32,000 bases of DNA from an uncultured Alphaproteobacteria bacterium (GTDB lineage: Bacteria; Pseudomonadota; Alphaproteobacteria; Rs-D84; CACZYB01). Within the stretch, counting starts at the first letter, position 1. Every line of letters begins with the position of its first letter. Shown here piece after piece: positions 8,330-30,860 of the stretch. Made by a program: the position numbers and the translations under genes. The notes beneath the pieces are model-generated. The model was not told the DNA's origin and made no database searches. It saw only the letters and a list, made by a program, of their open reading frames with translations. The stretch is taken from contig CAKQHZ010000002.1 of NCBI GenBank assembly GCA_934246625.1, positions 60,001-92,000 of the forward strand. The letters run 5' to 3'.

Positions 8330-8860
8330 ATGCCAAGTAATTATTCAGACAGCCCATCAATGGACGAAATTTTAGAACGTATCAAAAGGGCATTATCAGA
8401 CAGAGAAACAAAATCTTCATATTATGAAGAGGAAGAACATTACGAAGTTTCATCTGAATACCCAACAAACAAAAGAAACTCTTCATTATCATTCGAAGAA
8501 ATGAAGGAACTTTCATCATCAAGGGAAATGACAAACAAAATTGTTCAACCTTTGGCAGATGATGACATTTTCATAAAACCAGTCATCACACAAAAAACAA
8601 CCGAAGATGAAATAATAAAACCATTAAAAAAATCTGAAAAACTTAATCAACCAAAAATAAACGATGATGTTTTTGTTCTTACAAAAAGTATGAAAATAAA
8701 TCACAAACTTAACTTTGAAAACGTGGATTTGGATAAACTTTATAAAAACATATCCCTTGAACTTGGTCGAGATTTGGCAATCGCCTATCTGTCCCCAAAA
8801 ATCGAAAGCTGGTTCAAAATCAATATGCCAGATATGATAAAAAAATCACAAAACAAATAA
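8330..8860 (+). CDS. DUF2497 / PopZ-like protein
   Basis: N-terminal SPSMDEILERIKRALSD resembles the PopZ/DUF2497 N-terminal helix (..MEEILASIRRII..). An acidic low-complexity middle and a conserved-looking C-terminal helix region (LSPKIESWFKINMPDMIKK) follow. SD agagggaaaaATG. Confidence 0.55.
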   Translation: MPSNYSDSPSMDEILERIKRALSDRETKSSYYEEEEHYEVSSEYPTNKRNSSLSFEEMKELSSSREMTNKIVQPLADDDIFIKPVITQKTTEDEIIKPLKKSEKLNQPKINDDVFVLTKSMKINHKLNFENVDLDKLYKNISLELGRDLAIAYLSPKIESWFKINMPDMIKKSQNK

Positions 8861-8894: not shown

Positions 8895-10940
8895 TTACTT
8901 CAAACCGCACATACAATTCCTAAATTTAATAGCAGACCTCTTCAACTCTGTAATAGTTGATATTGGGTCAGCCAACTCTGTCCCATCATTTGATGCCCAA
9001 CCAACATACTTTTTCCATTCAGGCAAAGAGGAAGTATCACAATTATTCGGATTTGAAGACATATTTGAAATTATAGTAATAAACTTTTCCGCAACATCTA
9101 ACTCTATTGCCACATTATCAACATACTTAATATTCGGAATACTTGGACATTCCTTTGTAACAGAAGTTGTCGCAACAGAGGACTTTCCTGTGGTTGAAAC
9201 GCCACTACTACTTTTTCTTCCACTACTTGCACCACCACTAGCACAAGCACACTTTTTAATTTGACTCATAACCCCGACAATATCACTTTCACTAGGACAA
9301 GCCCTTCCATTACCAATCTTCTTACACTCATCATAGGCTTTAAACAAACTTATCAACCTTTGCTTTTCATTATTTGTGCAATTTGGTAAAGTATGAGTTT
9401 CCAAAAATGTATCCCACTTTTTCCTTGTTTCATATTTGATGTTAAGGTCTGGCACATCGGCACAATCACCACCACTGCCACCATTACCACCACAAAAAGA
9501 AGCACAATTATTGTATAAATACAATGACGCACCATTTGCATATTGACTTCCAAACTGTGTAAATGATTGTCCGAACACAGAATTGATTCGTCCCAAGGTC
9601 AAAGAAATTTTGTAATCAAAACGACCGGAAGATTCGCCAATACAGAAGAACTCATTACCACCACTGGTAAAACGTTCATACCAATTTCGTGTGCCGAGAT
9701 TCCCACTTGCACAATTTGGGAAAAATACCTTACAAATTCCACCTTTTGTTAAGCTAAAGTTTTGTGATGGCAAAGCACTTGAACAATTTGAAGCCCCACT
9801 TACACCAACAGACGGAGAAGAATAAGGTGATGATGAAGATGGCATTTTCAAATCGGTCAAAGAAACATTATCATCATTATCATTGACCGTAACATTACTT
9901 TTTCCAACGGCTGTCATATCACCAGTTCCAAGCCCCAAATTCAACCCAACGAAATTTGAAAGTTTTGTTTTCACACATTCGCTACTTGTATTGCCTTGTT
10001 CATACCCATACTTACAAACCAATCGGCATTCAGGAGCCCCATCTTCCACAAATTGCCATCTTTCACCACCAACTGGCAAAGGGGAATTAAGGCAGTCCAC
10101 ACTTCTGAACCAATAATTAACAATCTTGTTTGCGGTTGCACGGCCAAGCTCCTCCGCCTGAGCCCTCGCCCTTACATAAGCCAAATTTTCACGATTATCA
10201 AGGTCATAATCATTGACCTTTGTCAAAGAATAATCCTCCTCGCCACAGGCAAGTTCAGCCATTTCCATATATCCAGCCAAAACGCCATCAACAACCTGAC
10301 GCCAATTTTCACGTTTTTTTGTATTTTGCCCAGTCAACAACATATCCATCTGGGCCCCGATATTTGAATCGCCATAATCACCCGCCTTATAAAAACGGTC
10401 CACCATATTTTCATCACGGCTTTGATTATACCCACAAAGAGTTGTCAACTTTGAACGCAAAGAGGCATCAATACTTCCATCAGACGCAATCATTTCCGCC
10501 CAACACTTTTTTGCGGATTCAAGGGCAAGTGAGGCACTTTGACATTCCTTTGTTGACTTTTTCAACGCGGTTTCAATTTTATCCTTTCCCGCAAGCAAAG
10601 AAACAATATAATTATAGGTATAAGCCTTACACCCAGTATTCAAATTCAATTCCTTTATCACGGCACGTGTATCCAAACAATCTTCGACATTAAGTTGTAT
10701 AGTCGAAGCTGACACACTTCCACATTTTGAATACACCCCCTTTTCCAAAGTTTTTTTATCAAAACAATAACGATTAAAACAATAATCAATATTTTCACGA
10801 CATTCTGTTTCAGAAGGGTCCTTTAACTTCACAGAAGAAGTTGTATTTAACGAAGTCCTTTTTTTTGAAGATGTTCTTGCCGCCATAAGGTTCAAAGAGG
10901 CACAAGTCAAACCAATAACAAACACGAAAAATTTTTTCAT
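8895..10940 (-). CDS. large exported cysteine-rich protein D (681 aa), unknown family
   Basis: Signal peptide MKKFFVFVIGLTCASLNLMA|ARTSSKKRTS, then a basic Ser/Thr-rich linker and C-x6-C (ECRENIDYC). I count 31 Cys (30 after the signal peptide). An internal G/S-rich patch is present (CGGNGGSGGDC). No enzymatic or beta-barrel motif recognised. Confidence 0.88.
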   Translation of the reverse strand: MKKFFVFVIGLTCASLNLMAARTSSKKRTSLNTTSSVKLKDPSETECRENIDYCFNRYCFDKKTLEKGVYSKCGSVSASTIQLNVEDCLDTRAVIKELNLNTGCKAYTYNYIVSLLAGKDKIETALKKSTKECQSASLALESAKKCWAEMIASDGSIDASLRSKLTTLCGYNQSRDENMVDRFYKAGDYGDSNIGAQMDMLLTGQNTKKRENWRQVVDGVLAGYMEMAELACGEEDYSLTKVNDYDLDNRENLAYVRARAQAEELGRATANKIVNYWFRSVDCLNSPLPVGGERWQFVEDGAPECRLVCKYGYEQGNTSSECVKTKLSNFVGLNLGLGTGDMTAVGKSNVTVNDNDDNVSLTDLKMPSSSSPYSSPSVGVSGASNCSSALPSQNFSLTKGGICKVFFPNCASGNLGTRNWYERFTSGGNEFFCIGESSGRFDYKISLTLGRINSVFGQSFTQFGSQYANGASLYLYNNCASFCGGNGGSGGDCADVPDLNIKYETRKKWDTFLETHTLPNCTNNEKQRLISLFKAYDECKKIGNGRACPSESDIVGVMSQIKKCACASGGASSGRKSSSGVSTTGKSSVATTSVTKECPSIPNIKYVDNVAIELDVAEKFITIISNMSSNPNNCDTSSLPEWKKYVGWASNDGTELADPISTITELKRSAIKFRNCMCGLK

Positions 10941-11059: not shown

Positions 11060-11500
11060 ATGAAAATTTTAACTGGAACATTATGTGCGTTTTTATTATG
11101 TGGTTGTATCACCCGCGAATACAAATCTGGTATTCCAATACGACAAAGTCAAATAACACAAATAAAAAATGCCACAAGCAAAAAGGACATTTACGAAATT
11201 TTGGGTTCTCCTGCATCAATAAATTTTGTTGGCAATGAAAAATGGTTTTATTACACAGCCGAAGGGGACATATTTGCATTTTTGGATCCAATGTTTTCAA
11301 AATATGAAATACTTTCAATTCAATTTAATGCAAACGATGAAATTGAAAAAATCAAATTAACAAATATAAGTAATAAAAAAATACAGATTAACGAGGATAA
11401 AAAAACACAGCTTCCATCTGCAATCGAATTAAATTTCTTTCAGGAATTATTTGGAAACATTGGAAAATTTAATTCATCTGGTGTTCCAACATCAAATTAA
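11060..11500 (+). CDS. bamE: outer membrane protein assembly factor BamE (SmpA/OmlA lipoprotein)
   Basis: Lipobox LLCGC, then ..KKDIYEILGSPASINFVGNEKWFYY.. and the C-terminal ..FFQELFGNIGKF.. seen in alphaproteobacterial BamE. SD aaggagg lies upstream. Confidence 0.7.
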   Translation: MKILTGTLCAFLLCGCITREYKSGIPIRQSQITQIKNATSKKDIYEILGSPASINFVGNEKWFYYTAEGDIFAFLDPMFSKYEILSIQFNANDEIEKIKLTNISNKKIQINEDKKTQLPSAIELNFFQELFGNIGKFNSSGVPTSN

Positions 11501-11572: not shown

Positions 11573-14500
11573 TTAGAATCGATAGATTGACACATCACCA
11601 GGTCCACCACCCCAACCGTAATTCTCACCTACATCACCACAACCACCTCTTCGAATATCATTTGTTCCATGTCTAGAGCCACTTTTTGAACAATCTGAAG
11701 ATTTTTTACCTTCAACATAGTCTAGGTCAGTAGCATTATCACCATTATGACATGACCAATGCATGAACTTTGCTCTAGTATAACTACCTTCAGCACCATT
11801 ACCACCTTCTGATACAATAGAAACTAATTCTGGTATACTAAAACTTGATGAGCCACCTTTACCACCATCACCTGCATCTTTACCTGCCTTAGCTGAACTA
11901 CCACCTTTACCACCAGCACCTACTGTATAGGTAAAGGCTGTATCATTGACAACAATAAATGTTTCATATTTATATTGTCCCCAACCACCATCACCACCAG
12001 ATGTTTGACAACCGAACACACTACCGCCACCGCCACCGCCGGCACCTTGAACAACAACTTTATACACACCTGCGGACAATGTGCCACTTCCGCCTTCCAT
12101 TTTAACCTTTTGTGAATCGGTGTGTTCAAAGCTAAATTCACGAATTTTTGTCTGTATATTCTTCATTGCATTTGATTTATCGAAATCTGGCAAATCAACA
12201 CATGTAAGTTCAGGATATTCCGCATTTGATAATGCATCATAGTTTGCATCACCTGTAATTCCATACGCACTGTTTGGTTTTACATAAACATTACCTGAAG
12301 AATTTGCCTTTACCGTTAATAATTTAAGGGCATTTACAAAATCAAAACCACTAATTGAACTTGAATGATTAACAAAATAATCTGTCATTTGTGAACCAAT
12401 TTCGGAACATTTGTTAAGCACACTGGTTCCATTTGTTTCCATAACTGCACTTTTCATTTTTTCCACATTTGCAAGATATTGTTTATCCTGTTGTGTTTTT
12501 GTGGTATTGGCTTCCATTTCATAATTTGCCTTGTCAATCGCAGTTTGAACCTTTTGTTGTGCTAACTCTGCCTTTGCAGTAATAGTGTTAATTGTTCGGG
12601 TTGCATCATCTTTTTTCAATGCGTTTGCAACATCGGAAATGGTTGTAATATCTTTAACTTTATTTTTAATAATCACAGCCAAAGCATCTTCAAGATAATT
12701 TTTGATTTGTGTATCAAATTTTGCATAGCTTGTATCACGCACAGAAATCAAGTTTGCTTCATACATATCACATGATTTTTTTGCACTCATAAAATCAAGT
12801 TCGGCATAATCGGTATTTGTGTTATATGTTCCATCAGAAGATGGTTCCACATCTGATTTTGGCCAAAAACCTGACAAATAATATCTTTCCAAATCTGCCT
12901 TGTATGTAGCTTTACATGAAGCAAGTAAGGTTTTGTTTTTATTAAATTCACGATAGGTTTGGGCGACAGTTGAACTAACACCGCTTAATGACTTTGTCTT
13001 TCCATCAAAACAATAATTTGAAGCTCTGTTAAACAAAGCACTTGGGAATACCAATCCAGCCCCAAGAGGTGGCACTACGTTAATAGAAAACAAAGAACTA
13101 TCTCTGTTGATACCTAAATCGGTATAAATACTTCTTGCATCTTTTTCCTCTTCTTGTTGAGAGGCAACAAAGCAAGCCTGTGAATTACCACAAGTTGAAT
13201 TTCCCTGACATTTACGGATAAGTTCATTCCATGTTGAACCCGCAGGACATCTTGCACACTTTTTTTGCAAGCTATCATAAGTATCATTGTCTAATGGACA
13301 AGCCTGTGAAGAAGAACTTGTCGTTGAAACAAACTCCGCCGTTGACACATTTGCATCAAAATATTTTTTGTTTTCTGAATCATAAAGTTGGCATGCACCG
13401 ACAGAAGCATTATATTTATATCCATCACTACACTTTGTTGATGTGTTAAGCAAAGATGATATATCAAAAGTTTTAAGTGTTTCCAAACCTAAACCTTCGA
13501 TTCGTTGTTTATAAAGTTCAGAATTTGTGAAATTAACCATCTTAAGTTCACCAGAATCAAGTCGTTTCAATGCCTCCTTATAATATTCCGCAGAAGATGT
13601 TGTTCCAAACACATTTGCAATTTCGGCACGAACCTTTGCATCACCTGTTAAACCATCGGTGTTTGTATCTTCTGATGAAAGGACACAATAATTTGTTTTA
13701 ACACCAATAGCACTTTTAAGTGTGGTATTTCGTAAATCACAATAATAATTATATGCAAAATACAAATCGTTCACATCACGTGCGGAACAATTACTATTTA
13801 CAAAATCTTGATATTCCGAAGAAGTTGCTTGCAAATCTCCTGAATCTTTATAGGTATTTACCAAGACCTTTTCTTTACATAATTTTTGATATGTTTTCCA
13901 ATTATTATCAAAAGTTTTGTTTGCGGATAAAAACGCATTCAAAGTTTTATATTTTTCACAAGTTGCGCAAATTCCTGTTTTTGCCTTTGTATTTAGTGTC
14001 AATGTTGCATCACCAGATTCGGAACAAGTCGCACTTGTCAAATAACTTGAAAATTGGTTGTTTATATATGAATTAATATTGTCCTGAGCAATATTAAAAC
14101 TTGCCAAAGTTGATTCGTTTAACACAGAACGACAACTTGAAACCACCTGCATATTTTGTGGTAATTGGGAATTTGACCTATCATAAAACAAACATCTGAA
14201 AGGTTCCTGTGTATCAAGATAAGCCTGAACCGCTTCATCATCATAAAGATATGTGTATTTATCAATAACATCGTTGATTTGAGAATCCATACATGACACA
14301 AATGCTTCACGACATTTTTGTTCTTCCACCTTTTGAGAAGATGCACTTTCAGAAAGATTTTTACCTATCTTTGATGCCAATGATGATGTTGTTGCGGCAC
14401 GTCTTGTATTTAATCTTGTTTTTGCATTACCACCAGTTGCGGCACGCTTTCTTGAACCTGCTCTTGCAGTTTTTTTAGAAGATGATTTTTTTGCACCAGT

Positions 14501-14635
14501 ATTTGCCTTTCGCACAGATTTTTTTGTTGTTTTTTTAACTTGTGAAAAAGCAATATCAACATATGAAGTAAATGAAATCATTACTGCAATAAAATAAACA
14601 AGAATATGCTTTAACATTTTTTTAATCATTTTCAT
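11573..14635 (-). CDS. large exported cysteine-rich protein, tandem paralog A (1020 aa) with C-terminal glycine-rich domain; function unknown
   Basis: Signal peptide (..FIAVMISFTSYVDIAFS|QVKK), a ~75-aa Lys/Arg/Ser/Ala/Thr linker, and a motif scaffold shared with B and C (CREAFVSCMDSQI, PFRCLFYD, LYFAYNYYCD, LFSINVVPPLGAG, LERYYLSG, SAKKSCDMYE, CVDLPDF). I count 28 Cys. The start ATG overlaps the stop of B (ATGA). Confidence 0.92.
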   Translation of the reverse strand: MKMIKKMLKHILVYFIAVMISFTSYVDIAFSQVKKTTKKSVRKANTGAKKSSSKKTARAGSRKRAATGGNAKTRLNTRRAATTSSLASKIGKNLSESASSQKVEEQKCREAFVSCMDSQINDVIDKYTYLYDDEAVQAYLDTQEPFRCLFYDRSNSQLPQNMQVVSSCRSVLNESTLASFNIAQDNINSYINNQFSSYLTSATCSESGDATLTLNTKAKTGICATCEKYKTLNAFLSANKTFDNNWKTYQKLCKEKVLVNTYKDSGDLQATSSEYQDFVNSNCSARDVNDLYFAYNYYCDLRNTTLKSAIGVKTNYCVLSSEDTNTDGLTGDAKVRAEIANVFGTTSSAEYYKEALKRLDSGELKMVNFTNSELYKQRIEGLGLETLKTFDISSLLNTSTKCSDGYKYNASVGACQLYDSENKKYFDANVSTAEFVSTTSSSSQACPLDNDTYDSLQKKCARCPAGSTWNELIRKCQGNSTCGNSQACFVASQQEEEKDARSIYTDLGINRDSSLFSINVVPPLGAGLVFPSALFNRASNYCFDGKTKSLSGVSSTVAQTYREFNKNKTLLASCKATYKADLERYYLSGFWPKSDVEPSSDGTYNTNTDYAELDFMSAKKSCDMYEANLISVRDTSYAKFDTQIKNYLEDALAVIIKNKVKDITTISDVANALKKDDATRTINTITAKAELAQQKVQTAIDKANYEMEANTTKTQQDKQYLANVEKMKSAVMETNGTSVLNKCSEIGSQMTDYFVNHSSSISGFDFVNALKLLTVKANSSGNVYVKPNSAYGITGDANYDALSNAEYPELTCVDLPDFDKSNAMKNIQTKIREFSFEHTDSQKVKMEGGSGTLSAGVYKVVVQGAGGGGGGSVFGCQTSGGDGGWGQYKYETFIVVNDTAFTYTVGAGGKGGSSAKAGKDAGDGGKGGSSSFSIPELVSIVSEGGNGAEGSYTRAKFMHWSCHNGDNATDLDYVEGKKSSDCSKSGSRHGTNDIRRGGCGDVGENYGWGGGPGDVSIYRF

Positions 14636-16644
14636 TTCCCTTCATTTTCATTTTCTTTTGACACACTTTTATCTGGGAAAGTTTCTTCTAAATGCTTTTT
14701 AACTTGATCCTTTACAGTAGCCCCATAACTTGTTTCCAAATTACCAGGTAAATTAGAAAGGAATGCTAACTTATAACTAAATGTTGGAATATCAACACAA
14801 TAAATTTGATAATATCCAGCAGTCTTACCCTTATCCGCACTTCCATTTGAAATTGCAATATATTTATCATAATTGGAATCTGATGAAGGGATAACATCAC
14901 CTTCACGGTTAATTTTAACTGACTTTGCCTTTAGATTACCAATCCAATTCCAAAATTGAGATTTAACTTCATCTTTTGAAAAGCAAGAAGCTCCACTACT
15001 TCCACAATCAGTATTATAACTATTCAAAATCATAGTAGAACACTTTGTCAATGCTGGTGTAGCATAAGTAGAAGCGAAAGTTGATGCCAATTCCTTTTGT
15101 GAAGATGCCTTTTGCACAGCAACATTTGACAATGTCAAATTATATTCAGATTCGGCCAATGCAGCATCACCCTCAGCCTTTAATTTAGCCATTGCCATTT
15201 CACTTTCAACCTTTGAACGTTCATTTGTAATTTGGTTATCTAACTTTTTCAAATTTGTTTCAGCAGCAGCAAGTGAAGCAGTAGACTTCATCTTCTTTTT
15301 TACCATTTTTGCAAGATTATCTTCAATCCAATTTTGCATTTGGTTATCAAATTCACCATACTTTTTATCACGTGTAGAAATCAAAGCCTGTTCATATAAA
15401 CCACAACTTTCCTTTGCAGAAAAGAAAGCGGATGTAATATCTTCGGTTGTTCCACCTTCTATTTGATTACCATTGTCATCAACCTTTACACCTTCCCATT
15501 TTCCAGACAAATAATATCTTTGAAGGTTATCTTTTAAAGATATACAATTATTTGAATTAAATTGAGCAATTTGTTTATTTCGCGTGCGAATTGCTTCCTT
15601 TTGTGCAGTTGTTCCAACAACTTCAGAAGCCTCCGTCTTTAAACAATTATTTGAAGCTGTATTAAATTGAGCACTTGCCAAATAAGCATTTGCCCCAATC
15701 GGTGGCACAACATTAATAGAAAATAATTCCGTTTCATCCTCTAAATTTAATTGATTAAAAATTTCTGAACCAATTTTACCGTTAATAACATAAGAATCTT
15801 CATTTTCCAAATCAAGTTGGTTAATAAAATTTTTATAAATAGTAGAACTTTCAAGGTTAATCATTTGAAGTCCATCATTACTCATACGTTTCAAAACTTC
15901 ATTATAATAAGCAACACTATACTTTGTTGCAAAATTTGAACCTGCAGACAAATCGCATTGATTTATCTTTCTTCCAATATTGTTTTTTAATTTACGTTGA
16001 ATATCACAAAAATAATTATATGAATTATAAAGTTCATTCACACCACGTTGAGTATAACAACTTTCTTCTGTGATACCAATACAAGTTTTTTTATCATCAT
16101 TTAAAGCAGACGTATTTGATTTTAAAACATTTGAATTTGGGTCATAAAATACACATCTGAAAGGTTGACCAGTTTCAAGTGCAAGCTCCACAGATTCATC
16201 ATCACTTAAAAAAGAATACTTTGAAAGAGTGCTTGAAATTTGATTATCCATACAATCCACATAAAGATTGATACAAGTTTGTTCTGATGCAGTTGTATTA
16301 TCATTTAACTGATTCATAAATGATAAACTTTTACCAATAGTTGTTCTTACAGTTGCGGCACGTCTTGAATTTCTTCTGGAATTTCTAGTTGTTGCGGCAC
16401 GCCTACTATTTTTTCCAGACAAAGTTCTTTTCTTTGATGTTGCCTGTCTTTTTACACCAGCAGAAGATTTTCTTACACCTGAAGATGAGTTTGATTTCTT
16501 TCTGGCGCCACCTGCTTTTCTTACTGTTTTCTTTGCCACCTTTCTAGGTGCAGCACCCACAGGCAAAGAAACTGAAAGCACAGTAATTCCAGAATATAAA
16601 AATACCAACAATGGTATCATAAATTTTTTTAATACTAACTTCAT
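14632..16644 (-). CDS. large exported cysteine-rich protein, tandem paralog B (~670 aa), shortest member; function unknown
   Basis: Signal peptide MKLVLKKFMIPLLVFLYSGITVLSVSLPVGA|APRK, a basic linker with RRAAT repeats, and the same motif scaffold (CINLYVDCMDNQI, PFRCVFYD, LYNSYNYFCD, ELFSINVVPPIGA, LQRYYLSG, SAKESCGLYE, IYCVDIPTF). I count 14 Cys. The start is ATG 16644 or upstream TTG 16656. Confidence 0.9.
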   Translation of the reverse strand: MKLVLKKFMIPLLVFLYSGITVLSVSLPVGAAPRKVAKKTVRKAGGARKKSNSSSGVRKSSAGVKRQATSKKRTLSGKNSRRAATTRNSRRNSRRAATVRTTIGKSLSFMNQLNDNTTASEQTCINLYVDCMDNQISSTLSKYSFLSDDESVELALETGQPFRCVFYDPNSNVLKSNTSALNDDKKTCIGITEESCYTQRGVNELYNSYNYFCDIQRKLKNNIGRKINQCDLSAGSNFATKYSVAYYNEVLKRMSNDGLQMINLESSTIYKNFINQLDLENEDSYVINGKIGSEIFNQLNLEDETELFSINVVPPIGANAYLASAQFNTASNNCLKTEASEVVGTTAQKEAIRTRNKQIAQFNSNNCISLKDNLQRYYLSGKWEGVKVDDNGNQIEGGTTEDITSAFFSAKESCGLYEQALISTRDKKYGEFDNQMQNWIEDNLAKMVKKKMKSTASLAAAETNLKKLDNQITNERSKVESEMAMAKLKAEGDAALAESEYNLTLSNVAVQKASSQKELASTFASTYATPALTKCSTMILNSYNTDCGSSGASCFSKDEVKSQFWNWIGNLKAKSVKINREGDVIPSSDSNYDKYIAISNGSADKGKTAGYYQIYCVDIPTFSYKLAFLSNLPGNLETSYGATVKDQVKKHLEETFPDKSVSKENENEGK

Positions 16645-16712
16645 CTTTCCGTCCAACTATCCATATATTAAAGATATAACAGAAATTACCAAAAGTCAAT
16701 AAGTTATCAACA

Positions 16713-16740
16713 TAAAAAAAGAAGGGTCAAAGCCCTTCTC
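16713..16740 (-). terminator. Rho-independent terminator between paralog C and paralog B
   Basis: On the minus strand, agaaggg pairs with cccttct (16720-16726 / 16733-16739) and is followed by a T7 run (plus-strand A7 at 16714-16720). A TTGACT -35-like hexamer (16699-16694, minus) lies just downstream. Confidence 0.75.
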
Positions 16741-16750
16741 TTAAAATAAA

Positions 16751-19405
16751 TTATTTTTCTTTTCCTTCTTCCTCTTTATTTTCATCCGTCTTTGTGGAAT
16801 TAAGTATATCATCAGCACCAAGGACAACAGCTGTCACATTTTGGTCAAATAATTCCTTACCACGACCCATATAATGACCTTTTAACGCAGGAAGTTCAAT
16901 TGTTTTACTACTTGATTCTTTTACAAGACCTAAGAACTTTTCTGTTTTTGTTCGTTGTGTAACAACACACTTTCCATTTTCAATTCTTTGGTTATCATAT
17001 GAAACTTTTTTACTACCACCAAACATAGAAGAAATGAATCCTATAGCAGCTGGTATTCCACCAAGGACATTACCTCCTGCAATAATAGAAAGCCCAGCCA
17101 AAGCAAAACTACTTTTTACTCTTTCTATTGCAGTATTTGTTTCACTACCATTTGGTTTACCAGCAACACTAACATTTGATTTTTCATTTTCTTCATCGGC
17201 TTGTTTTTGTAAATCTTCCAAAACCTTTATCAATAATTCATTTTTACCAGTGCAAGAATATTCAAGCATACCATCATAAAGAATACTCATTGCATATCTT
17301 GATGGTTCCATAATTGATGTTTTAAAGTATGGAGCATCAACACAATAAATTTCAGTATATCCATCTGGCAAAGCAGAAGATGTTGTGGTTGTATTGCCAT
17401 TTGCGTCCATTGTTGTAACAGTCGCATCTTTTACATCGCCATCACGATTGATATAAATACTTTGAATATTCAAAAGGTTTGAAAGTTCTTCTAACTTCTT
17501 TGGTGATTTAAGGTTCATAAAGAAGTTATCCATACCTTGAATACATTCGGCATAATTTTCACCACAAACTGCACGCATAGAACTCATAACTTTAGGAGTG
17601 CAATAATTTGCAATTTGTCTTGGATATGTATCTGTGTAAAGTTTTGCACGTTCTTTACGTTGAGCGATAAGACTTTTATCAACTTCAAGTTTTTTCATAT
17701 CAAGATTAAGGTTTGCATTAAGAATTGCAATTTCCGCCTCTGATTTTGCATTTGCAATTTCCGCACGCATATTTGCAAGGTTAATTGAAATATCTGCATC
17801 TGCTTGTTGTAAAGATTGGAAAGAAGATGCAATAGTTTTAAGATCTTTTGTCTTTTTCTTAACAAGTTTTGCAACCTCATCCTCAATATAGTTTTTAAGA
17901 TAAGTATCAAAATTTGCATATTGAGTATTACGCACAGAAATCATAGTATTTTCATACATATCACATGATTTTTTTGCACTTAAGAAATCTGATTGAACAA
18001 GAAACATTTGGTCATAAGTCAATTCGTCTTCTGTTGTAATTTCTGTTTTTGGAGCAAGGTTATAAAGTGAAGTTTTATCTTCATCAATACCCTTTTCCTC
18101 TGCTTCTTTAGCTATCTTTGATTCAATAGTTCTGTTTTCACCATTAAAACTACATTTATTTGTTTTTTGGTTATATTCATAAGAAGCTGGACAATAAACC
18201 TTTGCAGTTCCAGCAAGGTAATATCTTTCCAAATCGCTACGAACTTCGGCTTCACCACAATTTGTAAGTATAGAAATATCTGACTTTATAGTTTTTTCAT
18301 CTTCAGTCAAAGTTTTTCCAGCAGGTTTAAACACCTGTGCACCAAAGCAAATATCACTTGCCTTTTGGAAAATACCACTTGCATTTAAACTTCCTGCGCC
18401 AACAGGTGGCACAACATTGATAGAAAATAATTCACTATCAGAAGATGCCAATCCCAAATCTTCCATCAAATCGGAAACTGAATTTGTTTCTGAGCATGTG
18501 CAACCAGCACTTCCTTCTTGACAAGATTTGTTATCACTATCAACACAAGTCTTACTTGTCAAACTCATCATATCCCAATTTTCAAGGTCAAGTTTTGAAA
18601 TTTTATTTTTAAAAAGATTTGTTTGTTCAAAGTTAATAATTTTAAGTTCACCCGCTTGAACACGTCTATTTGCTTCGGCATAGTAAGCAGCAGAATCCTT
18701 TGTCGCAAACACATTATTTTTGCTTTTACCACCATTTGAATATTGTTTTATATTACATTTATTTACTGGCATACCAGCCACACCAACTTCTGATGTATCC
18801 AAATCACAATAATAATTATATGACATATAAAGTTCATTTATATCCTTTTGATTTGAACAAAAGTTATAATTATTAAAGGCATTTTCCTTACCAATTTTAT
18901 TTAATGACAAATCAACCTTTCCACTTGTTGAATTGATAAGGTTATCATTTCTTTTTGACATTTGTTCTTCTGAACAATATTTAGAAGTTGTTGCATCACC
19001 AAACAAATTATCAACATTACTTGAATTATAATAAATACAACGCAATGGGTCATTTGTTTCTTGCATAGCTTGAACACCTTGGTCATCAGCCAAATAGCTA
19101 TAAGATGCAATTATATTATTGATTTGCAAATCCATACATTCTGTATATGCGGAACGACAATCCTTTTTTGCTGAACCACTTGAAGTTGTTCCAGTCGCAA
19201 TAACACCACGACCAGCAGTTCTTCCTGCTTGACGTTTGTTTCCAACACTTCTCACAGACTTTTTAGAAGAGCCACCTCTTGATGCTTGACGTTTTGTTGA
19301 TTTTTTACCAGATGATTTTGAAGTTTTTCTCGCCGCAAATGCAGGCAAAGTAAATTCACCAATAAAAGTAAATAAACTAAGGAAAACTATAAAATTTTTA
19401 AACAT
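16751..19405 (-). CDS. large exported cysteine-rich protein, tandem paralog C (~884 aa) with C-terminal glycine-zipper hydrophobic segment; function unknown
   Basis: SD GGGAGA lies 7 nt before ATG 19405 (the track's TTG 19420 is probably too early). Signal peptide MFKNFIVFLSLFTFIGEFTLPAFA|ARKTSK, a basic linker, and the scaffold motifs (CRSAYTECMDLQI, PLRCIYYN, LYMSYNYYCD, ELFSINVVPPVGA, LERYYLAG, SAKKSCDMYE, IYCVDAPYF). I count 22 Cys. Confidence 0.92.
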   Translation of the reverse strand: MFKNFIVFLSLFTFIGEFTLPAFAARKTSKSSGKKSTKRQASRGGSSKKSVRSVGNKRQAGRTAGRGVIATGTTSSGSAKKDCRSAYTECMDLQINNIIASYSYLADDQGVQAMQETNDPLRCIYYNSSNVDNLFGDATTSKYCSEEQMSKRNDNLINSTSGKVDLSLNKIGKENAFNNYNFCSNQKDINELYMSYNYYCDLDTSEVGVAGMPVNKCNIKQYSNGGKSKNNVFATKDSAAYYAEANRRVQAGELKIINFEQTNLFKNKISKLDLENWDMMSLTSKTCVDSDNKSCQEGSAGCTCSETNSVSDLMEDLGLASSDSELFSINVVPPVGAGSLNASGIFQKASDICFGAQVFKPAGKTLTEDEKTIKSDISILTNCGEAEVRSDLERYYLAGTAKVYCPASYEYNQKTNKCSFNGENRTIESKIAKEAEEKGIDEDKTSLYNLAPKTEITTEDELTYDQMFLVQSDFLSAKKSCDMYENTMISVRNTQYANFDTYLKNYIEDEVAKLVKKKTKDLKTIASSFQSLQQADADISINLANMRAEIANAKSEAEIAILNANLNLDMKKLEVDKSLIAQRKERAKLYTDTYPRQIANYCTPKVMSSMRAVCGENYAECIQGMDNFFMNLKSPKKLEELSNLLNIQSIYINRDGDVKDATVTTMDANGNTTTTSSALPDGYTEIYCVDAPYFKTSIMEPSRYAMSILYDGMLEYSCTGKNELLIKVLEDLQKQADEENEKSNVSVAGKPNGSETNTAIERVKSSFALAGLSIIAGGNVLGGIPAAIGFISSMFGGSKKVSYDNQRIENGKCVVTQRTKTEKFLGLVKESSSKTIELPALKGHYMGRGKELFDQNVTAVVLGADDILNSTKTDENKEEEGKEK

Positions 19406-19552
19406 ATATCCATCTCCCAATTTTCACATAAAATTCTAATATATATTTTTTCTCTTAATTATATTACAATCATTCGAAACAAAAGTAAATAATTTTATTG
19501 ATTTTTCTCATATTTTTTTGTAAAAGATATATGTCAAAATGAAAGGGAGAAA

Positions 19553-21268
19553 ATGAATATATTTATGATTCTTATTATGGCTGTTATGCTAGGAATGTAT
19601 CAATACTTTACTGCAAAAAAGTCATCTGAAGTAACATTAAATAAAGAAGAACGAGCTTTCGAAGTTGAACTTAACTGTCTTAAACAATTTCATGATTATG
19701 GAGCATCACGAAACGAAGCACAACTTACATCTGGTCCAATAAATCCAAATTATACCTGTGCTGGACACGAAAATATAAAAATGTATAAATATTGCCTTAA
19801 TAATAACGTTGAAACACCTTGTTCTGAAACATCAATCACAGAACATTGCGTTGCAACCACTATGGCAAAGGAAAAATTGGATAATTCATTAAAAGCACTC
19901 CTTTTTCAAAAGGGTATTGATGAAATAAAGGCTGGAAATCTAATAAAAGGAAAAAAAATATCAGCACAAAATCACCCTGTATCAACAGTTGCCTCAACAT
20001 CTTTTGGACTTACAACCTGTGTTCCTGCTGAACGTATTTCACAAAATGAAAAACTTGCAAAGGATAATTGTGCAAAGGAAGGTAAATTTGCCACACTTAA
20101 AGCTGATGGTTCTTTTGAATGCACCGATGTGCCAGAAGTTTCCGAATGCACCGCACACGAAGATTCTGTTGTAAATATATCTGGTCGTCAAAATTGCACT
20201 GGTCCTATAAATGGTAAATATTGTTGTGCAAAAATCAATCTTGAAAAAACTGTTTGTGGAAGCGATCCAAACATCAAAGCAACATGGAACGCAAATACTC
20301 GTTTTTATAATTGCACAACTGGTGAAGAAACCTGTAATGTAAAAGATAATGTTATGGACGTTGTTGATGAAAACAATACAAAGAAAGACGAAATAATAAT
20401 CAAAAAAGATTCAACCGATAAATTTTATATTGCAAAATATAATACAACAAAAAAGGCATGGGATTGTATTCCAAATTCACGATTACTTATCGACCTTTGT
20501 AAATCAAAAACATTGGAAAACGAACTTGCATACGTTTCTGTTTCCGACCTTTCTGTTTCAAATGGAAAGCCTGTATGTAAAGGAGCATCAAGCAAAGCGC
20601 CAAGTGCTGTTGAAACTTGTTCTGCTTGTGGTATTCCAACACTTAACAAATCAACAAACCAATGGTATTGCAAATACCCAAATTGGAACACCGAATTAAA
20701 AAATAATCCAACCGCAATGAACAATTACATAAACACCGTCTACAAAGCATCTGGTATAAATAATAAGGGTATTGAAGCCTGCTTTAGAGGCTGTTCTGCA
20801 GATATGATAAACAAATTAAGACAAGGTGTTGTAAATGGACTTTTATGGGGATTAACCTGGAATAACAACTCAAAGCTATTTGAATGCTTTAAATGTGGAG
20901 ATTATTCAAATGAAAATGGTTCTTCTTTCTATAATGGTGCATATATAAACAACCTATGTAAAAATGGAAACTTTTCATCAACTCCAGCATCCGTTTGCAT
21001 AGATAATAAGTATTCCGATGCTACTTGCACAAATTCTGAAATCAACGGAAGATGTGTTATAAAATGTTGTAATGACTTATATCAAAAACGTGGAACAGAT
21101 GGTAAATGTTATACAAAATGGTGCCGAAAAATTCCTGCTGAAATAAATGCAGTTATCAACAAACCACAAGAAAAAGTATGTCCAAAAACACACCCTCGTT
21201 CTATATATAATTCAGTTCAGGATTGTGTATATTGCATAAAAACACCACCTGTATCAACAGATAAATAA
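19553..21268 (+). CDS. exported or membrane-anchored cysteine-rich protein E (571 aa), unknown family
   Basis: SD agggag lies before the ATG. The N-terminus is uncharged and hydrophobic (MNIFMILIMAVMLGMYQYF), a signal sequence or signal anchor. I count 36 Cys (about 6% of residues) spread over the whole length, including CC, CxxC and CxC pairs. It is transcribed divergently from paralog C. Confidence 0.88.
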   Translation: MNIFMILIMAVMLGMYQYFTAKKSSEVTLNKEERAFEVELNCLKQFHDYGASRNEAQLTSGPINPNYTCAGHENIKMYKYCLNNNVETPCSETSITEHCVATTMAKEKLDNSLKALLFQKGIDEIKAGNLIKGKKISAQNHPVSTVASTSFGLTTCVPAERISQNEKLAKDNCAKEGKFATLKADGSFECTDVPEVSECTAHEDSVVNISGRQNCTGPINGKYCCAKINLEKTVCGSDPNIKATWNANTRFYNCTTGEETCNVKDNVMDVVDENNTKKDEIIIKKDSTDKFYIAKYNTTKKAWDCIPNSRLLIDLCKSKTLENELAYVSVSDLSVSNGKPVCKGASSKAPSAVETCSACGIPTLNKSTNQWYCKYPNWNTELKNNPTAMNNYINTVYKASGINNKGIEACFRGCSADMINKLRQGVVNGLLWGLTWNNNSKLFECFKCGDYSNENGSSFYNGAYINNLCKNGNFSSTPASVCIDNKYSDATCTNSEINGRCVIKCCNDLYQKRGTDGKCYTKWCRKIPAEINAVINKPQEKVCPKTHPRSIYNSVQDCVYCIKTPPVSTDK

Positions 21269-28202: not shown

Positions 28203-29570
28203 ATGACAATAAAAATTTTAAAAAATATAGGACTTGTGATAACCACAATTTTTGTGGATTTTTCTGCATACGCACAAACAACAAATATGCAACTTCCTCA
28301 ACAAGTCGGGGTTTACAATCCAAACATAAGAACCCAACAAATGCAACTTCCACAACAGGTTGGTGTTTATGCCCCACAATCACAACAAAATCAAAGGATT
28401 CCTCAACAACAAGGATACAGATATAATGCACCTGTTGTAAATTATAATAAGGCTCCTGTAATCAATAATAACCTATACGAAAATGTAAATGGATATAAAA
28501 CTCCAAATCGTTATACCCTTTCACAACCTGAAGTCATAAAAACTGCATATAATAACAAACAAAAAACATCTGAAGATTATGGCCCAGAATACTATATGGT
28601 ATTAAATTATGGAAAGGCTTTCTTTGATGGAAAGGGATTAACAGGAAGTGTTACTGTATCAAGCCCATTTGACACAGTTTATAATTTTCCATTAAACAAT
28701 ATCGGTAATTCATTAGGGGACGCAAACGACCTTTCAATCGGTTTTGGTGTTATGTCAAACCGAAATTTCAAAGCTGAAATCACTTATAACAGCCTATCAG
28801 GTTTAAAATACGGTGATTATGCAACTGCGACAAACCAATGGTGTTCTGATGAATTTGCTGACGATGGAAGTTTTTATTATGATTGTTCAAAACAATTATC
28901 TGTTGATGGTGGAAAAATAAGCTCTTTTGGTTTCAACCTTAATATGTATTTTACAATAGAAGATTTTATTGGTGGTAAAATCCTTGATGGACTTATTACT
29001 CCATATATCGGTGGTGGTATAGGTATTGCTTTCAATACCATTGATAACTACACAACCTATGATGAAATAGGTAATGGTGAAGCGCCTTTAAACTCATCTG
29101 GTGAACCATATATAAGCAAATCAACTGGTGCTGCTTACACAGCAGAAGAATGTTTAACTGCAACTGATTGTGTCGATAATTTTGGATATTATGATTACGA
29201 TGGCACAATTACCCACTATGGGGCAACATCAAACAATGTAAGTTGGAATATCGAAGCTGGCTTATCATTCGCACTTGATTCAAAAACATTGATTGATGTA
29301 TATTATAAACACAATTACTATGGAAAGGTAAAATCCAAAAACGAAGTATATTCTTCATACAACTCTGTTGATATTTTGGATCCAGTTGATGATAGCAGTG
29401 GCGGAAAAACTTGCACAGAAAATGCTCTTAAGGCAGAATATCTATATAACGAATCAACAGGTTGGTGTGAAAGTGAACCATATTCAACTGAAGCAACAGT
29501 CTACAACGCTGGTGAAAGTGGAACAATTGAAAACAATACAATGGGAGTAAAACTTAGACTTATATTCTAA
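28203..29570 (+). CDS. outer-membrane beta-barrel protein with Q-rich N-terminal repeat, tandem paralog 1
   Basis: Signal peptide ..FVDFSAYA|QTT, a Gln/Pro-rich region with an 18-aa tandem repeat, amphipathic strands, and C-terminal NNTMGVKLRLIF. Three loop Cys pairs. SD aggagagg. Confidence 0.82.
   Translation: MTIKILKNIGLVITTIFVDFSAYAQTTNMQLPQQVGVYNPNIRTQQMQLPQQVGVYAPQSQQNQRIPQQQGYRYNAPVVNYNKAPVINNNLYENVNGYKTPNRYTLSQPEVIKTAYNNKQKTSEDYGPEYYMVLNYGKAFFDGKGLTGSVTVSSPFDTVYNFPLNNIGNSLGDANDLSIGFGVMSNRNFKAEITYNSLSGLKYGDYATATNQWCSDEFADDGSFYYDCSKQLSVDGGKISSFGFNLNMYFTIEDFIGGKILDGLITPYIGGGIGIAFNTIDNYTTYDEIGNGEAPLNSSGEPYISKSTGAAYTAEECLTATDCVDNFGYYDYDGTITHYGATSNNVSWNIEAGLSFALDSKTLIDVYYKHNYYGKVKSKNEVYSSYNSVDILDPVDDSSGGKTCTENALKAEYLYNESTGWCESEPYSTEATVYNAGESGTIENNTMGVKLRLIF
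28287..28370 (+). repeat. in-frame tandem repeat, period 54 nt (MQLPQQVGVY core duplicated)
   Basis: atgcaacttcctcaacaagtcggggtttac (28287-28316) versus atgcaacttccacaacaggttggtgtttat (28341-28370). There are 5 differences and all are synonymous third positions. Confidence 0.9.
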
Positions 29571-29582
29571 GGGAATAAAAAT

Positions 29583-30860
29583 ATGAAAAAACTTTATACA
29601 AACATATTCTATTCAATAACTGCAATTCTTGGATTCGCAAGCACTCCTGCATTATCTCAAACAACTCAAAATGCAAAACCTGTAACAATGAGATATGTTG
29701 GCAACCAACAATACATAGGTCAACAACAACAAATTATTCCTCAACAAAAACAAGTTGCACCAACAATAAATTCTGTATATGCAAAACCAATGCATCGTGT
29801 AAATGAAATTCCATTATACGGTAAAAATAAAAGTATGTATTTTTATAACCAACCTAAAAACGAAGACGGCAAATTTTCTGGCATTGGATTATATTTATTC
29901 GGTTCATTTTCAACTGGTAAAACAACAAAGGGTGTAAATGCCGAAGATTATAACAGCAACTTTTCATATTCAATAGGAAGTGATGGCAACAAAGATATGG
30001 GCGATGCAACTGGCCTTACTTTTGGTTTTGGTCGTTCTATGTCATCAAACTTAAACATCGAATTGATGTATTCAAAATACTCTGGTATGAAATACGGAAA
30101 TGCAATAAAAAACAAAATGCTTACTGATGGCACTAACGACTTTTATCCATCAGACGCAAATGATAATTGCTATGATGAAGAAGGAAATTATCTTTGTTAT
30201 GATAAAACTACCGACAGCTATAAAATAACAAGCGGTGGTGATATAAATTCAGATTTCTTTGGTATTGGTTTTCAATATAAATTTGATGGCTTAACTGGTG
30301 GACTTTTTGGTATGTTAAAACCATACATAGGAGTCCAAGTCGGTTTCGCAATGAATACCCTTGACGATTTCAATGTTTCCGACCCTGATGGTTATAGCGA
30401 GGGTGATGAAATGTATACTTATGCAGAGGATGATGAAAACCAAGAAAATCCTACAGGTCCAAATGAAAATTGCACAGAAGCATCTAAATGTACAATAAAT
30501 GATTATACAGATGGTGATATAACATTTATTGGCGAAACAAATAAAACTTTTGGTTATGGACTTGAACTTGGTTTCACAATCGCACTTGAAAACAATATGG
30601 AAATTGATGTATTTTTCAAACGAAATATGTTTGGAAAGGTAAAAACTTCTGGAAATGCTTTAGCATCATATTATCAAACTGATACATATTTCTATGCTAA
30701 TAATGGAACTTGTTCTAATGGTTTCAGTGAAGATTCAACAGGTTTTGTATGCTTCGCTGAAGCAGATATTGGAACAAAAGATTCACAAGCAACCAATGCA
30801 GTTGAATCAGGTGATTTATATATGAATCAACTTGGAATAAAATTAAAATATATGTTTTAA
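29583..30860 (+). CDS. outer-membrane beta-barrel protein with Q-rich N-terminus, tandem paralog 2
   Basis: Signal peptide ..GFASTPALS|QTT, a Q-rich stretch (GNQQYIGQQQQIIPQQKQ), blocks shared with paralog 1 (SGMKYG, KPYIGVQVGFAMNT, FGKVKTSGN), and C-terminal NQLGIKLKYMF. Three loop Cys pairs. Confidence 0.82.
   Translation: MKKLYTNIFYSITAILGFASTPALSQTTQNAKPVTMRYVGNQQYIGQQQQIIPQQKQVAPTINSVYAKPMHRVNEIPLYGKNKSMYFYNQPKNEDGKFSGIGLYLFGSFSTGKTTKGVNAEDYNSNFSYSIGSDGNKDMGDATGLTFGFGRSMSSNLNIELMYSKYSGMKYGNAIKNKMLTDGTNDFYPSDANDNCYDEEGNYLCYDKTTDSYKITSGGDINSDFFGIGFQYKFDGLTGGLFGMLKPYIGVQVGFAMNTLDDFNVSDPDGYSEGDEMYTYAEDDENQENPTGPNENCTEASKCTINDYTDGDITFIGETNKTFGYGLELGFTIALENNMEIDVFFKRNMFGKVKTSGNALASYYQTDTYFYANNGTCSNGFSEDSTGFVCFAEADIGTKDSQATNAVESGDLYMNQLGIKLKYMF

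Follow-up and report, generated by a model that had tools for sequence, protein, structure and literature searches.

We analysed a 32,000-nucleotide stretch of DNA from an uncultured alphaproteobacterium (assembly GCA_934246625.1, contig CAKQHZ010000002.1, positions 60,001 to 92,000; the whole stretch is hereafter called the window), in which open reading frame (ORF) calling found three consecutive minus-strand genes, C, B and A, at 11573-19420. Gene C (16751-19420) encodes 889 amino acids (aa), with a signal peptide, a basic low-complexity region, a cysteine-rich helical trunk and a lineage-specific tail. Gene B (14632-16656; 674 aa), the most conserved paralogue between strains, has the same trunk without a head, while gene A (11573-14635; 1020 aa) has the trunk and a glycine-rich head. 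The start of A and the stop of B overlap as ATGA, and this tight B-to-A junction is conserved across syntenic loci. A terminator-like hairpin (16717-16742, minus strand) lies inside the 95-bp gap between C and B, which suggests that C is one transcription unit and B-A another.

An earlier, sequence-only reading of this DNA had proposed that the three paralogues can be aligned up to a CVDxPxF motif and are unrelated after it, a constant exported trunk being joined to alternative C-terminal modules. The motif translates as claimed, as EYPELTCVDLPDF in A (12182-12220, aa 806-818, within the last alpha/beta subdomain of the trunk), GYYQIYCVDIPTF in B (14779-14817, aa 614-626) and GYTEIYCVDAPYF in C (17324-17362, aa 687-699), all on the minus strand. 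Up to this point the three trunks were 33-37% identical with about 120 invariant alignment columns, a likeness that, judged from the alignment, is one of homology and not of chance. Beyond the motif A has a further 202 aa, B 48 and C 190, and the hidden Markov model (HMM) of each tail type matched its own type only, so the tails are mutually unrelated. Taken over the whole family, conservation of the motif is limited to its Cys and its Phe/Trp (roughly Y-x4-C-x-[DENQ]-x3-[FW]); C498 is nearly invariant in the family alignment, and the paralogue alignment shows many conserved cysteines in the trunk.

A, B and C all start with a Sec-type signal peptide followed by a 60-100-aa segment rich in Lys, Arg, Ser and Thr. 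The short motif [KR]RAA[TGA] (KRAAT, RRAAT) recurs in this basic low-complexity segment, with two copies each in A (window 14330-14542) and B (16310-16560). It is found in the N-terminal regions of most family members, with up to six copies in some relatives, and 52 occurrences were observed across the family against 9.5 expected from composition-preserving shuffles; a role in anchoring, processing or modification is possible.

Modelling of B (aa 115-674) with AlphaFold2 (AF2), the source of all models described here, gave a predicted local distance difference test (pLDDT) score of 69 overall, rising to about 90 over the last 150 residues, and a predicted template modelling (pTM) score of 0.44. 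The monomer trunk was modelled with long helices only, and its fold runs past the motif, with confident helices after it in both B and A. The trunk had no structural relatives in the PDB (Foldseek, best E 1.1), no sequence relatives among PDB sequences by profile search, and no match in Pfam, NCBIfam or PHROGs.

The part of A that follows the motif had been described from its sequence as a glycine-rich domain of about 200 aa; its 202 aa indeed contain a Pfam match, to PF21722 (Gly_rich_2), over aa 858-1012 (score 32.9 bits, curated threshold 24.3, E 8e-8). In a model of A aa 736-1020 (pLDDT 82, pTM 0.77) the motif is followed by a helix at aa 822-833 and a low-confidence linker at aa ~836-847, and these by a separate beta-rich domain. 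The last trunk helix and the linker thus make up a post-motif segment at 12095-12181 (aa 819-847, minus strand) that is conserved between strains and has the strain-level breakpoint at its 3' end, and the head itself spans 11576-12094 (aa 848-1020, minus strand), with conserved strands and variable loops, and is hypervariable between strains. Foldseek matched the head model to the tail tip of mycobacteriophage Bxb1 (9d93, chain Q; E 4.6e-6, probability 1.0), to the fibre of cyanophage Pam3 (7ypx; E 2.6e-4) and to the glycine-rich domains of LTK and ALK (7nx1, E 6e-4; 7lrz; and others, E 6e-4 to 1e-3, probability 0.97-0.99). Searched against the viral structure library BFVD, it matched 233 proteins at E <= 1e-3; most of them, from tailed phages and giant viruses, are minor tail proteins or glycine-rich domain-containing proteins. 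The model thus puts the A head in the fold class of phage tail-fibre tips and ALK-like glycine-rich domains, bearing out the comparison with tail fibres that had been drawn for these genes. PHROGs tail families matched A aa 814-1013 weakly, and nothing else in the array. The A tail had no relatives among PDB sequences, and a word-indexed homolog search with it returned one strain variant and three weak matches, namely two small PF21722 proteins and one PF23091 protein. A literature search on PF21722 found no paper. Polyglycine-rich 'brush' domains are described as phage anti-receptors (PMC13243795), and natural examples of polyglycine-II bundles include ALK and the adhesin of the S16 tail fibre (PMC12227593, citing Dunne 2018 on S16 gp38 and Li 2021 on ALK).

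B ends 48 aa after the motif (14635-14778, minus strand, aa 627-674), as had been read from the sequence, where these residues were taken for a polar tail. The length stood; the idea of a separate tail variant did not, as the model shows two or three confident helices packed on the trunk (pLDDT about 90 through aa ~664) followed by only some ten disordered acidic residues. This short end is conserved in all B orthologues. Because its 48-aa end is modelled as a structured trunk terminus, B is a headless trunk and not a third kind of tail.

In C, an acidic linker completes the post-motif segment (17114-17323, aa 700-769, minus strand), after which come the glycine-zipper-like hydrophobic segment (17015-17113, aa 770-802, minus strand; Kyte-Doolittle mean up to 1.6) and a C-terminal domain of about 85 aa (16754-17014, aa 803-889, minus strand) with the pattern VSY.N...G.C...PALK..Y.G.G..LF. 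The roughly 190-aa tail with its hydrophobic glycine zipper is therefore present, as the earlier reading had it, but the zipper is not a constant element: it is absent from the orthologues P0017 and P0022, is about 60 aa long in P0002, and is the most variable part of C between strains. The C-terminal domain is confined to this trunk family, being recognized by HMM in P0002, P0017 and P0020 and by eye in P0022, P0039 and P0059. No relatives of the C tail outside the family were found among PDB sequences, by the word-indexed homolog search or by tblastn of 50,697 phage records.

The trunk itself is an undescribed and narrowly distributed family. Profile searching of an index of 5.8 billion proteins returned 16 members, 59 trunk matches (32 at E <= 1e-30) came from 1.84 billion cluster representatives scanned exhaustively with HMMER, and a scan of 185,579 species genomes found eight loci, all in metagenome-assembled genomes. 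Four of these eight are titled as an Alphaproteobacteria or Rickettsiales bacterium, two simply as 'bacterium' (Mgla isolates), and two lie in one bin labelled Bacteroidales; the three-gene array belongs to a small clade of uncultured gut Alphaproteobacteria. The distant members P0031, P0033, P0037 and P0038 have no CVDxPxF subdomain, and their helical stalk is joined straight to the head. A sister family (P0053, P0055, P0060, P0061, P0064-P0066, P0069 and P0070) has only the N-terminal part of the trunk in common (C..Y.NCMD..., FAVNVPPP, YY.G.W, SC..YE); its C-terminal half is long, Cys-rich and of another kind, so that the trunk itself looks modular.

A neighbour-joining tree of the trunks (numpy distances, 200 bootstraps) recovered a B clade whose members are all short-ended and an A clade whose members all carry glycine-rich heads, each with 100% support. 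The C-position orthogroup (98%) splits by tail type into two subclades: C, P0002 and P0017, with the hydrophobic segment and domain tail (91%), and their sister group P0006, P0009, L003_C and L004_C, with a glycine-rich head (100%). There is thus no single fixed tail per orthologue, and the proposal of a constant exported trunk with alternative C-terminal modules holds, with two tail types inside one orthogroup and sharp replacement between strains (see below). The tails are also structured and conserved as domains, and not disordered, unconserved extensions. The loci L003 and L004 have glycine-rich heads at both the A and the C positions; since the C-position heads form a clade of their own, they are not recent copies of A heads. 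The short-ended P0029 grouped with the glycine-rich P0031 (90.5%).

In two loci a further glycine-rich gene lies some 1.2 kb downstream of A, in opposite orientation (L005:15931-16632 and L012:19304-19927, both minus). It encodes a stand-alone secreted protein of 207-233 aa that has both Cys repeats like those of TNFR and ephrin receptors and a glycine-rich domain; the window has no equivalent of this gene. The stand-alone domain of L005 is 59% identical to the neighbouring A head and 32-41% identical to all others, so the head module has moved from one scaffold to another.

Replacement of heads was seen most directly between close strains. In three species, strains that were 99-100% identical in trunk and flanks had A heads only 47-79% identical. 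In the species of the window, comparison with L011 gave 13-30 differences per 100 nucleotides across 11600-12099 and 0-3 in the A trunk and the downstream intergenic region. By the Nei-Gojobori method, synonymous divergence (dS) was 0.014 and non-synonymous divergence (dN) 0.005 in the A trunk, against a dS of 0.16 and a dN of 0.18 in the head (dN/dS ~1.1), so that dS rises about 12-fold at the head boundary. The C tail of this species was mildly raised (dN 0.020 versus 0.004), mainly in the hydrophobic segment. L003_A and P0019 are 98.9% identical in trunk amino acids and 47% identical in the head. L012 and L005 share a background of 99-100% nucleotide identity, with 98-100% in the B gene and the flanks; identity between the two is 57-70% in the A head, 35-60% in the last third of the C gene and 76-80% in the stand-alone glycine-rich gene. 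Protein alignment of A with P0042 and P0072 shows conserved strand and glycine segments alternating with hypervariable loops and indels.

Three side observations belong with these comparisons. The L010 sequence, a 26.8-kb contig of a close strain that is 98.97% identical to the window over 14.6 kb, ends inside the glycine-rich head of A (window ~11997), as expected if several coexisting head alleles break assembly. The A-type gene of L011 (L011:3-1604, equal to window 11573-13176) is split into two ORFs by an in-frame stop in the helical stalk (TKT*QDK), and is either a pseudogene or affected by a sequencing error, the contig having a low coverage of 2.8. A 27-aa Lys/Asn-rich insertion (GAKGDKKGKKSTLTIKKNDNNEVNNEDIDFAKS) in the N-terminal half of the C-type trunk (L012 10600-10900) also distinguishes L012 and L005.

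The motif, which had been proposed as the junction for swapping, is not where the breaks fall: A-type breakpoints lie in the linker, about 25-30 aa after it, and the breakpoint of the C-type pair L012/L005 lies in the helical stalk, about 180 aa before it. The expectation that C-termini would be replaced by unrelated modules between strains held for the replacement and not for the unrelatedness, in that the exchanged pieces are divergent alleles of one fold. Because the roughly 12-fold jump in dS occurs with identical flanks, the heads look like imported alleles and not the product of local hypermutation, and the pattern points to replacement between strains by recombination. Targeted hypermutation of the head, by a diversity-generating retroelement or something similar, would also confine variation to a C-terminal domain of ligand-binding type. 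We regard it as exceedingly unlikely: the 32-kb window holds no template repeat of head DNA and no reverse-transcriptase-like (YxDD) ORF, there are many indels, synonymous change is raised as much as non-synonymous change, and the divergent block of the C-type pair is about 1.2 kb long, stalk included.

A constant N-terminal region with variable C-termini that are sharply replaced between strains is also what polymorphic toxins such as CdiA-CT, Rhs and MafB display, and the sequence-only reading had raised this logic. The trunk would then be a delivery module and the tails interchangeable toxins, with immunity encoded elsewhere; the glycine-zipper segment of C could serve as a pore former, and a conserved motif does lie near the junction. 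Several results spoke against toxins. No toxin domain was found in Pfam or NCBIfam, and the tail of A has a receptor-binding type of fold. The small downstream immunity-like ORFs that the earlier reading had suggested looking for were absent: no small same-strand ORF follows A or C, and in the other genomes the downstream genes are conserved, invariant and either housekeeping or of no known function. HMM searches found no extra copies of the glycine-rich tail, the C-tail domain or the trunk in the window, and thus no orphan cassettes; the stand-alone glycine-rich gene of L005 and L012 is complete and secreted and is not a promoterless cassette. The proteins have a Sec signal peptide and a basic low-complexity segment only, with no trafficking domains of the type 5, 6 or 7 secretion systems (T5/T6/T7). 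Together with the absence of the hydrophobic segment from two C orthologues, the exchange of alleles of one fold and breakpoints that avoid the motif, these results leave a polymorphic toxin system very improbable. A constant trunk with a variable C-terminus need not, on this evidence, mean a toxin.

The genes around the array are conserved. A divergent plus-strand gene (19553-21268) for a Cys-rich secreted protein of 571 aa was syntenic with the array in all genomes examined, and the order of this ~570-aa gene, the C-position gene, B and A was kept in L001, L003, L004, L005, L010, L012 and L014. All seven loci also have nearby a BamE-like gene and a gene for a ~700-aa Cys-rich protein; in the window these are a BamE-like lipoprotein gene on the plus strand, 3' of A (11060-11500), and a minus-strand gene for a 681-aa Cys-rich secreted protein (8895-10940), a conserved neighbour whose side of the array differs between genomes. 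Neither the 571-aa nor the 681-aa protein had a Pfam hit, and no homology between them and the trunk was found (hhalign probability <1%). In L003, L004 and L012 the array has the block of the 681-aa and BamE-like genes on its other side, evidence of a rearrangement. The 681-aa, 571-aa and BamE-like neighbours are invariant between strains, unlike A and C.

The remainder of the window is ordinary chromosome of a bacterium with about 32% G+C, with rpsP-rimM-trmD-rplS, MlaD, DUF2155, lepB, rnc, a Xer-like recombinase, cytidine deaminase, ftsJ, gltX and pth among its genes. This setting bears on the idea that the array is a domesticated phage, tailocin or gene-transfer-agent fibre module, supplying fibres or decoys for a particle encoded elsewhere, with head diversity tracking the receptors of target cells. 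The head fold, the PHROGs tail-family matches to A and a mosaic mode of head evolution that is typical of phage receptor-binding proteins would all suit such an origin. All three proteins nevertheless have Sec signal peptides and trunks without phage homologues, tblastn of the two tails found no match in the phage records, and there are no phage structural, lysis or integrase-cassette genes nearby; the neighbours lack PHROGs matches, and the Xer-like recombinase keeps its place among housekeeping genes in every genome. We judge a phage-derived module improbable.

The same surroundings can be turned in favour of a structural role in the envelope, in which A, B and C would form a disulfide-linked scaffold, periplasmic or associated with the outer membrane, beside BamE, and head variability would reflect weak constraint on loops together with hitch-hiking recombination. 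Many conserved cysteines, Sec export, the presence of further Cys-rich secreted proteins and a BamE-like gene in the conserved neighbourhood, the absence of an identifiable surface-export signal, and a dN/dS of about 1 and not well above it are all consistent with such a scaffold. A 12-fold rise in dS confined to the head between 100% identical flanks, however, implies that imported alleles are kept in the population, which would be unusual for a purely structural periplasmic protein; the same pattern occurs in three species, and the head fold serves ligand or receptor binding wherever it has been studied (PMC13243795). A scaffold of this sort seems to us unlikely, if still worth weighing.

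The explanation that we favour, by a little over even chances, is a surface-binding or adhesin-like system whose heads are diversified in the manner of tail fibres, and not a toxin. Starting from the observed architecture, homology, synteny, fold class of the A head and strain-level replacement, we infer exposure at the cell surface and a fibre-like role in binding. Each protein is Sec-exported and composed of a basic, disordered N-terminal segment, a Cys-rich and mostly helical stalk, and a small terminal alpha/beta subdomain with the CVDxPxF motif. B ends at this subdomain, and A adds a short linker and a polyglycine-rich head of the type that phages use as receptor-binding tips of tails and tail fibres and that ALK and LTK use for ligand binding. 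In C of this lineage, the hydrophobic segment and the ~85-aa domain take the place of the glycine-rich head that C orthologues of sister species keep. A, and ancestrally C too, would present a phage-type receptor-binding head on a cellular stalk. Recombination would swap heads between strains, breaking A in its linker and C in its stalk. Selection on the head loops would be relaxed or diversifying, whereas the trunks, B and the genes on either side remain almost the same from strain to strain. If so, the head may be under diversifying or frequency-dependent pressure, probably through exposure to hosts, antibodies, phages or partner cells, and its variation may alter binding specificity or evade antibodies and phages, as in phage receptor-binding proteins.

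Several points weigh against this surface-binding explanation. The trunk model is mediocre (pLDDT 69, pTM 0.44) and without a structural match, so the words 'stalk' and 'fibre' refer to predicted long helices only. The Foldseek TM-scores of the A head are low (0.33-0.41), partly because the query had two domains, and the tblastn search with both tails did not connect them at sequence level with any known phage. None of the three proteins showed a recognizable route across the outer membrane, an anchor or a sorting signal; searches of Pfam and NCBIfam found in them no YadA-like barrel, autotransporter barrel, sortase signal or type 9 secretion system (T9SS) signal. A head dN/dS of about 1.1 could come from relaxed constraint just as it could from positive selection. 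The sequences compared, moreover, are all metagenome assemblies, in which strain mixtures may give chimeric contigs, although the divergent alleles themselves are real.

A hetero-oligomer of A, B and C is plausible because the C, B-A order is conserved and B is coupled to A. A bolder version of the surface-binding explanation would have the three stalks form one hetero-oligomeric cell-surface fibre, the cell's own equivalent of a phage tail fibre on a Cys-rich helical scaffold not seen before, with B as a headless structural chain and A and C as carriers of interchangeable heads. A pool of head alleles kept by the population, among them stand-alone copies on other scaffolds, would recombine at the linker and so redirect attachment towards host, prey or partner cells; we offer this as speculation and think it rather doubtful.

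Among known systems, the closest likeness is to the polyglycine tips of phages (Bxb1 9d93, Pam3 7ypx, mycobacteriophage minor tail proteins and S16 gp38). The A head belongs to the same Pfam family, PF21722, and its model matches the structures; in both, an elongated protein ends in a C-terminal head whose hypervariable loops are set between conserved glycine-rich segments, and close relatives swap heads. Unlike these tips, the head of A is carried by a cellular protein exported through Sec, whose Cys-rich helical trunk has no homologues in phages, and the array genes are chromosomal, beside housekeeping genes and without a virion module. The glycine-rich domain of ALK and LTK (TNF-like plus polyglycine-II) resembles the A head at the level of the modelled fold, and may be likened to it as an extracellular, ligand-binding domain, but it belongs to the ectodomain of an animal receptor tyrosine kinase, the TM-scores are low and the domain context is wholly different. 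Fibrous surface proteins in which a stalk bears a globular TNF-like head, such as Bacillus BclA and trimeric fibres, offer a plausible analogy for the build of A: an anchoring segment at the N-terminus, then an elongated stalk, then a TNF-like head at the C-terminus. The stalk of A is not collagen-like, however, but is Cys-rich and predicted to be helical.

The head domain and head swapping are known from phages, and their combination on a Sec-exported, chromosomal array of three paralogues appears to be new. Polyglycine-rich 'brush' heads are familiar chiefly from phage anti-receptors and from the ligand-binding domain of ALK and LTK; here they stand on a Sec-exported cellular scaffold and show allele swapping like that of phage receptor-binding proteins. 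If the proteins are surface fibres, they would form the principal strain-variable surface through which this lineage meets its host, phages or other microbes, serve as a marker for strain tracking in gut metagenomes, and provide a natural case of head exchange on a fixed stalk that could guide the engineering of binding specificity.

Two minor observations concern other genes of the window. A conserved acidic protein of about 170 aa beginning MPSNYSDSPSMDEIL, with no Pfam hit, is encoded near the array in several genomes (window 8330-8860, plus strand; L003:14706-15218; L005:15005-15712). Further along, two adjacent plus-strand genes (28203-29570 and 29583-30860), neither of which has a Pfam or PHROGs match, encode proteins of 455 aa and 425 aa that are paralogues of one another, with 27% identity over ~430 aa (E 9e-27).

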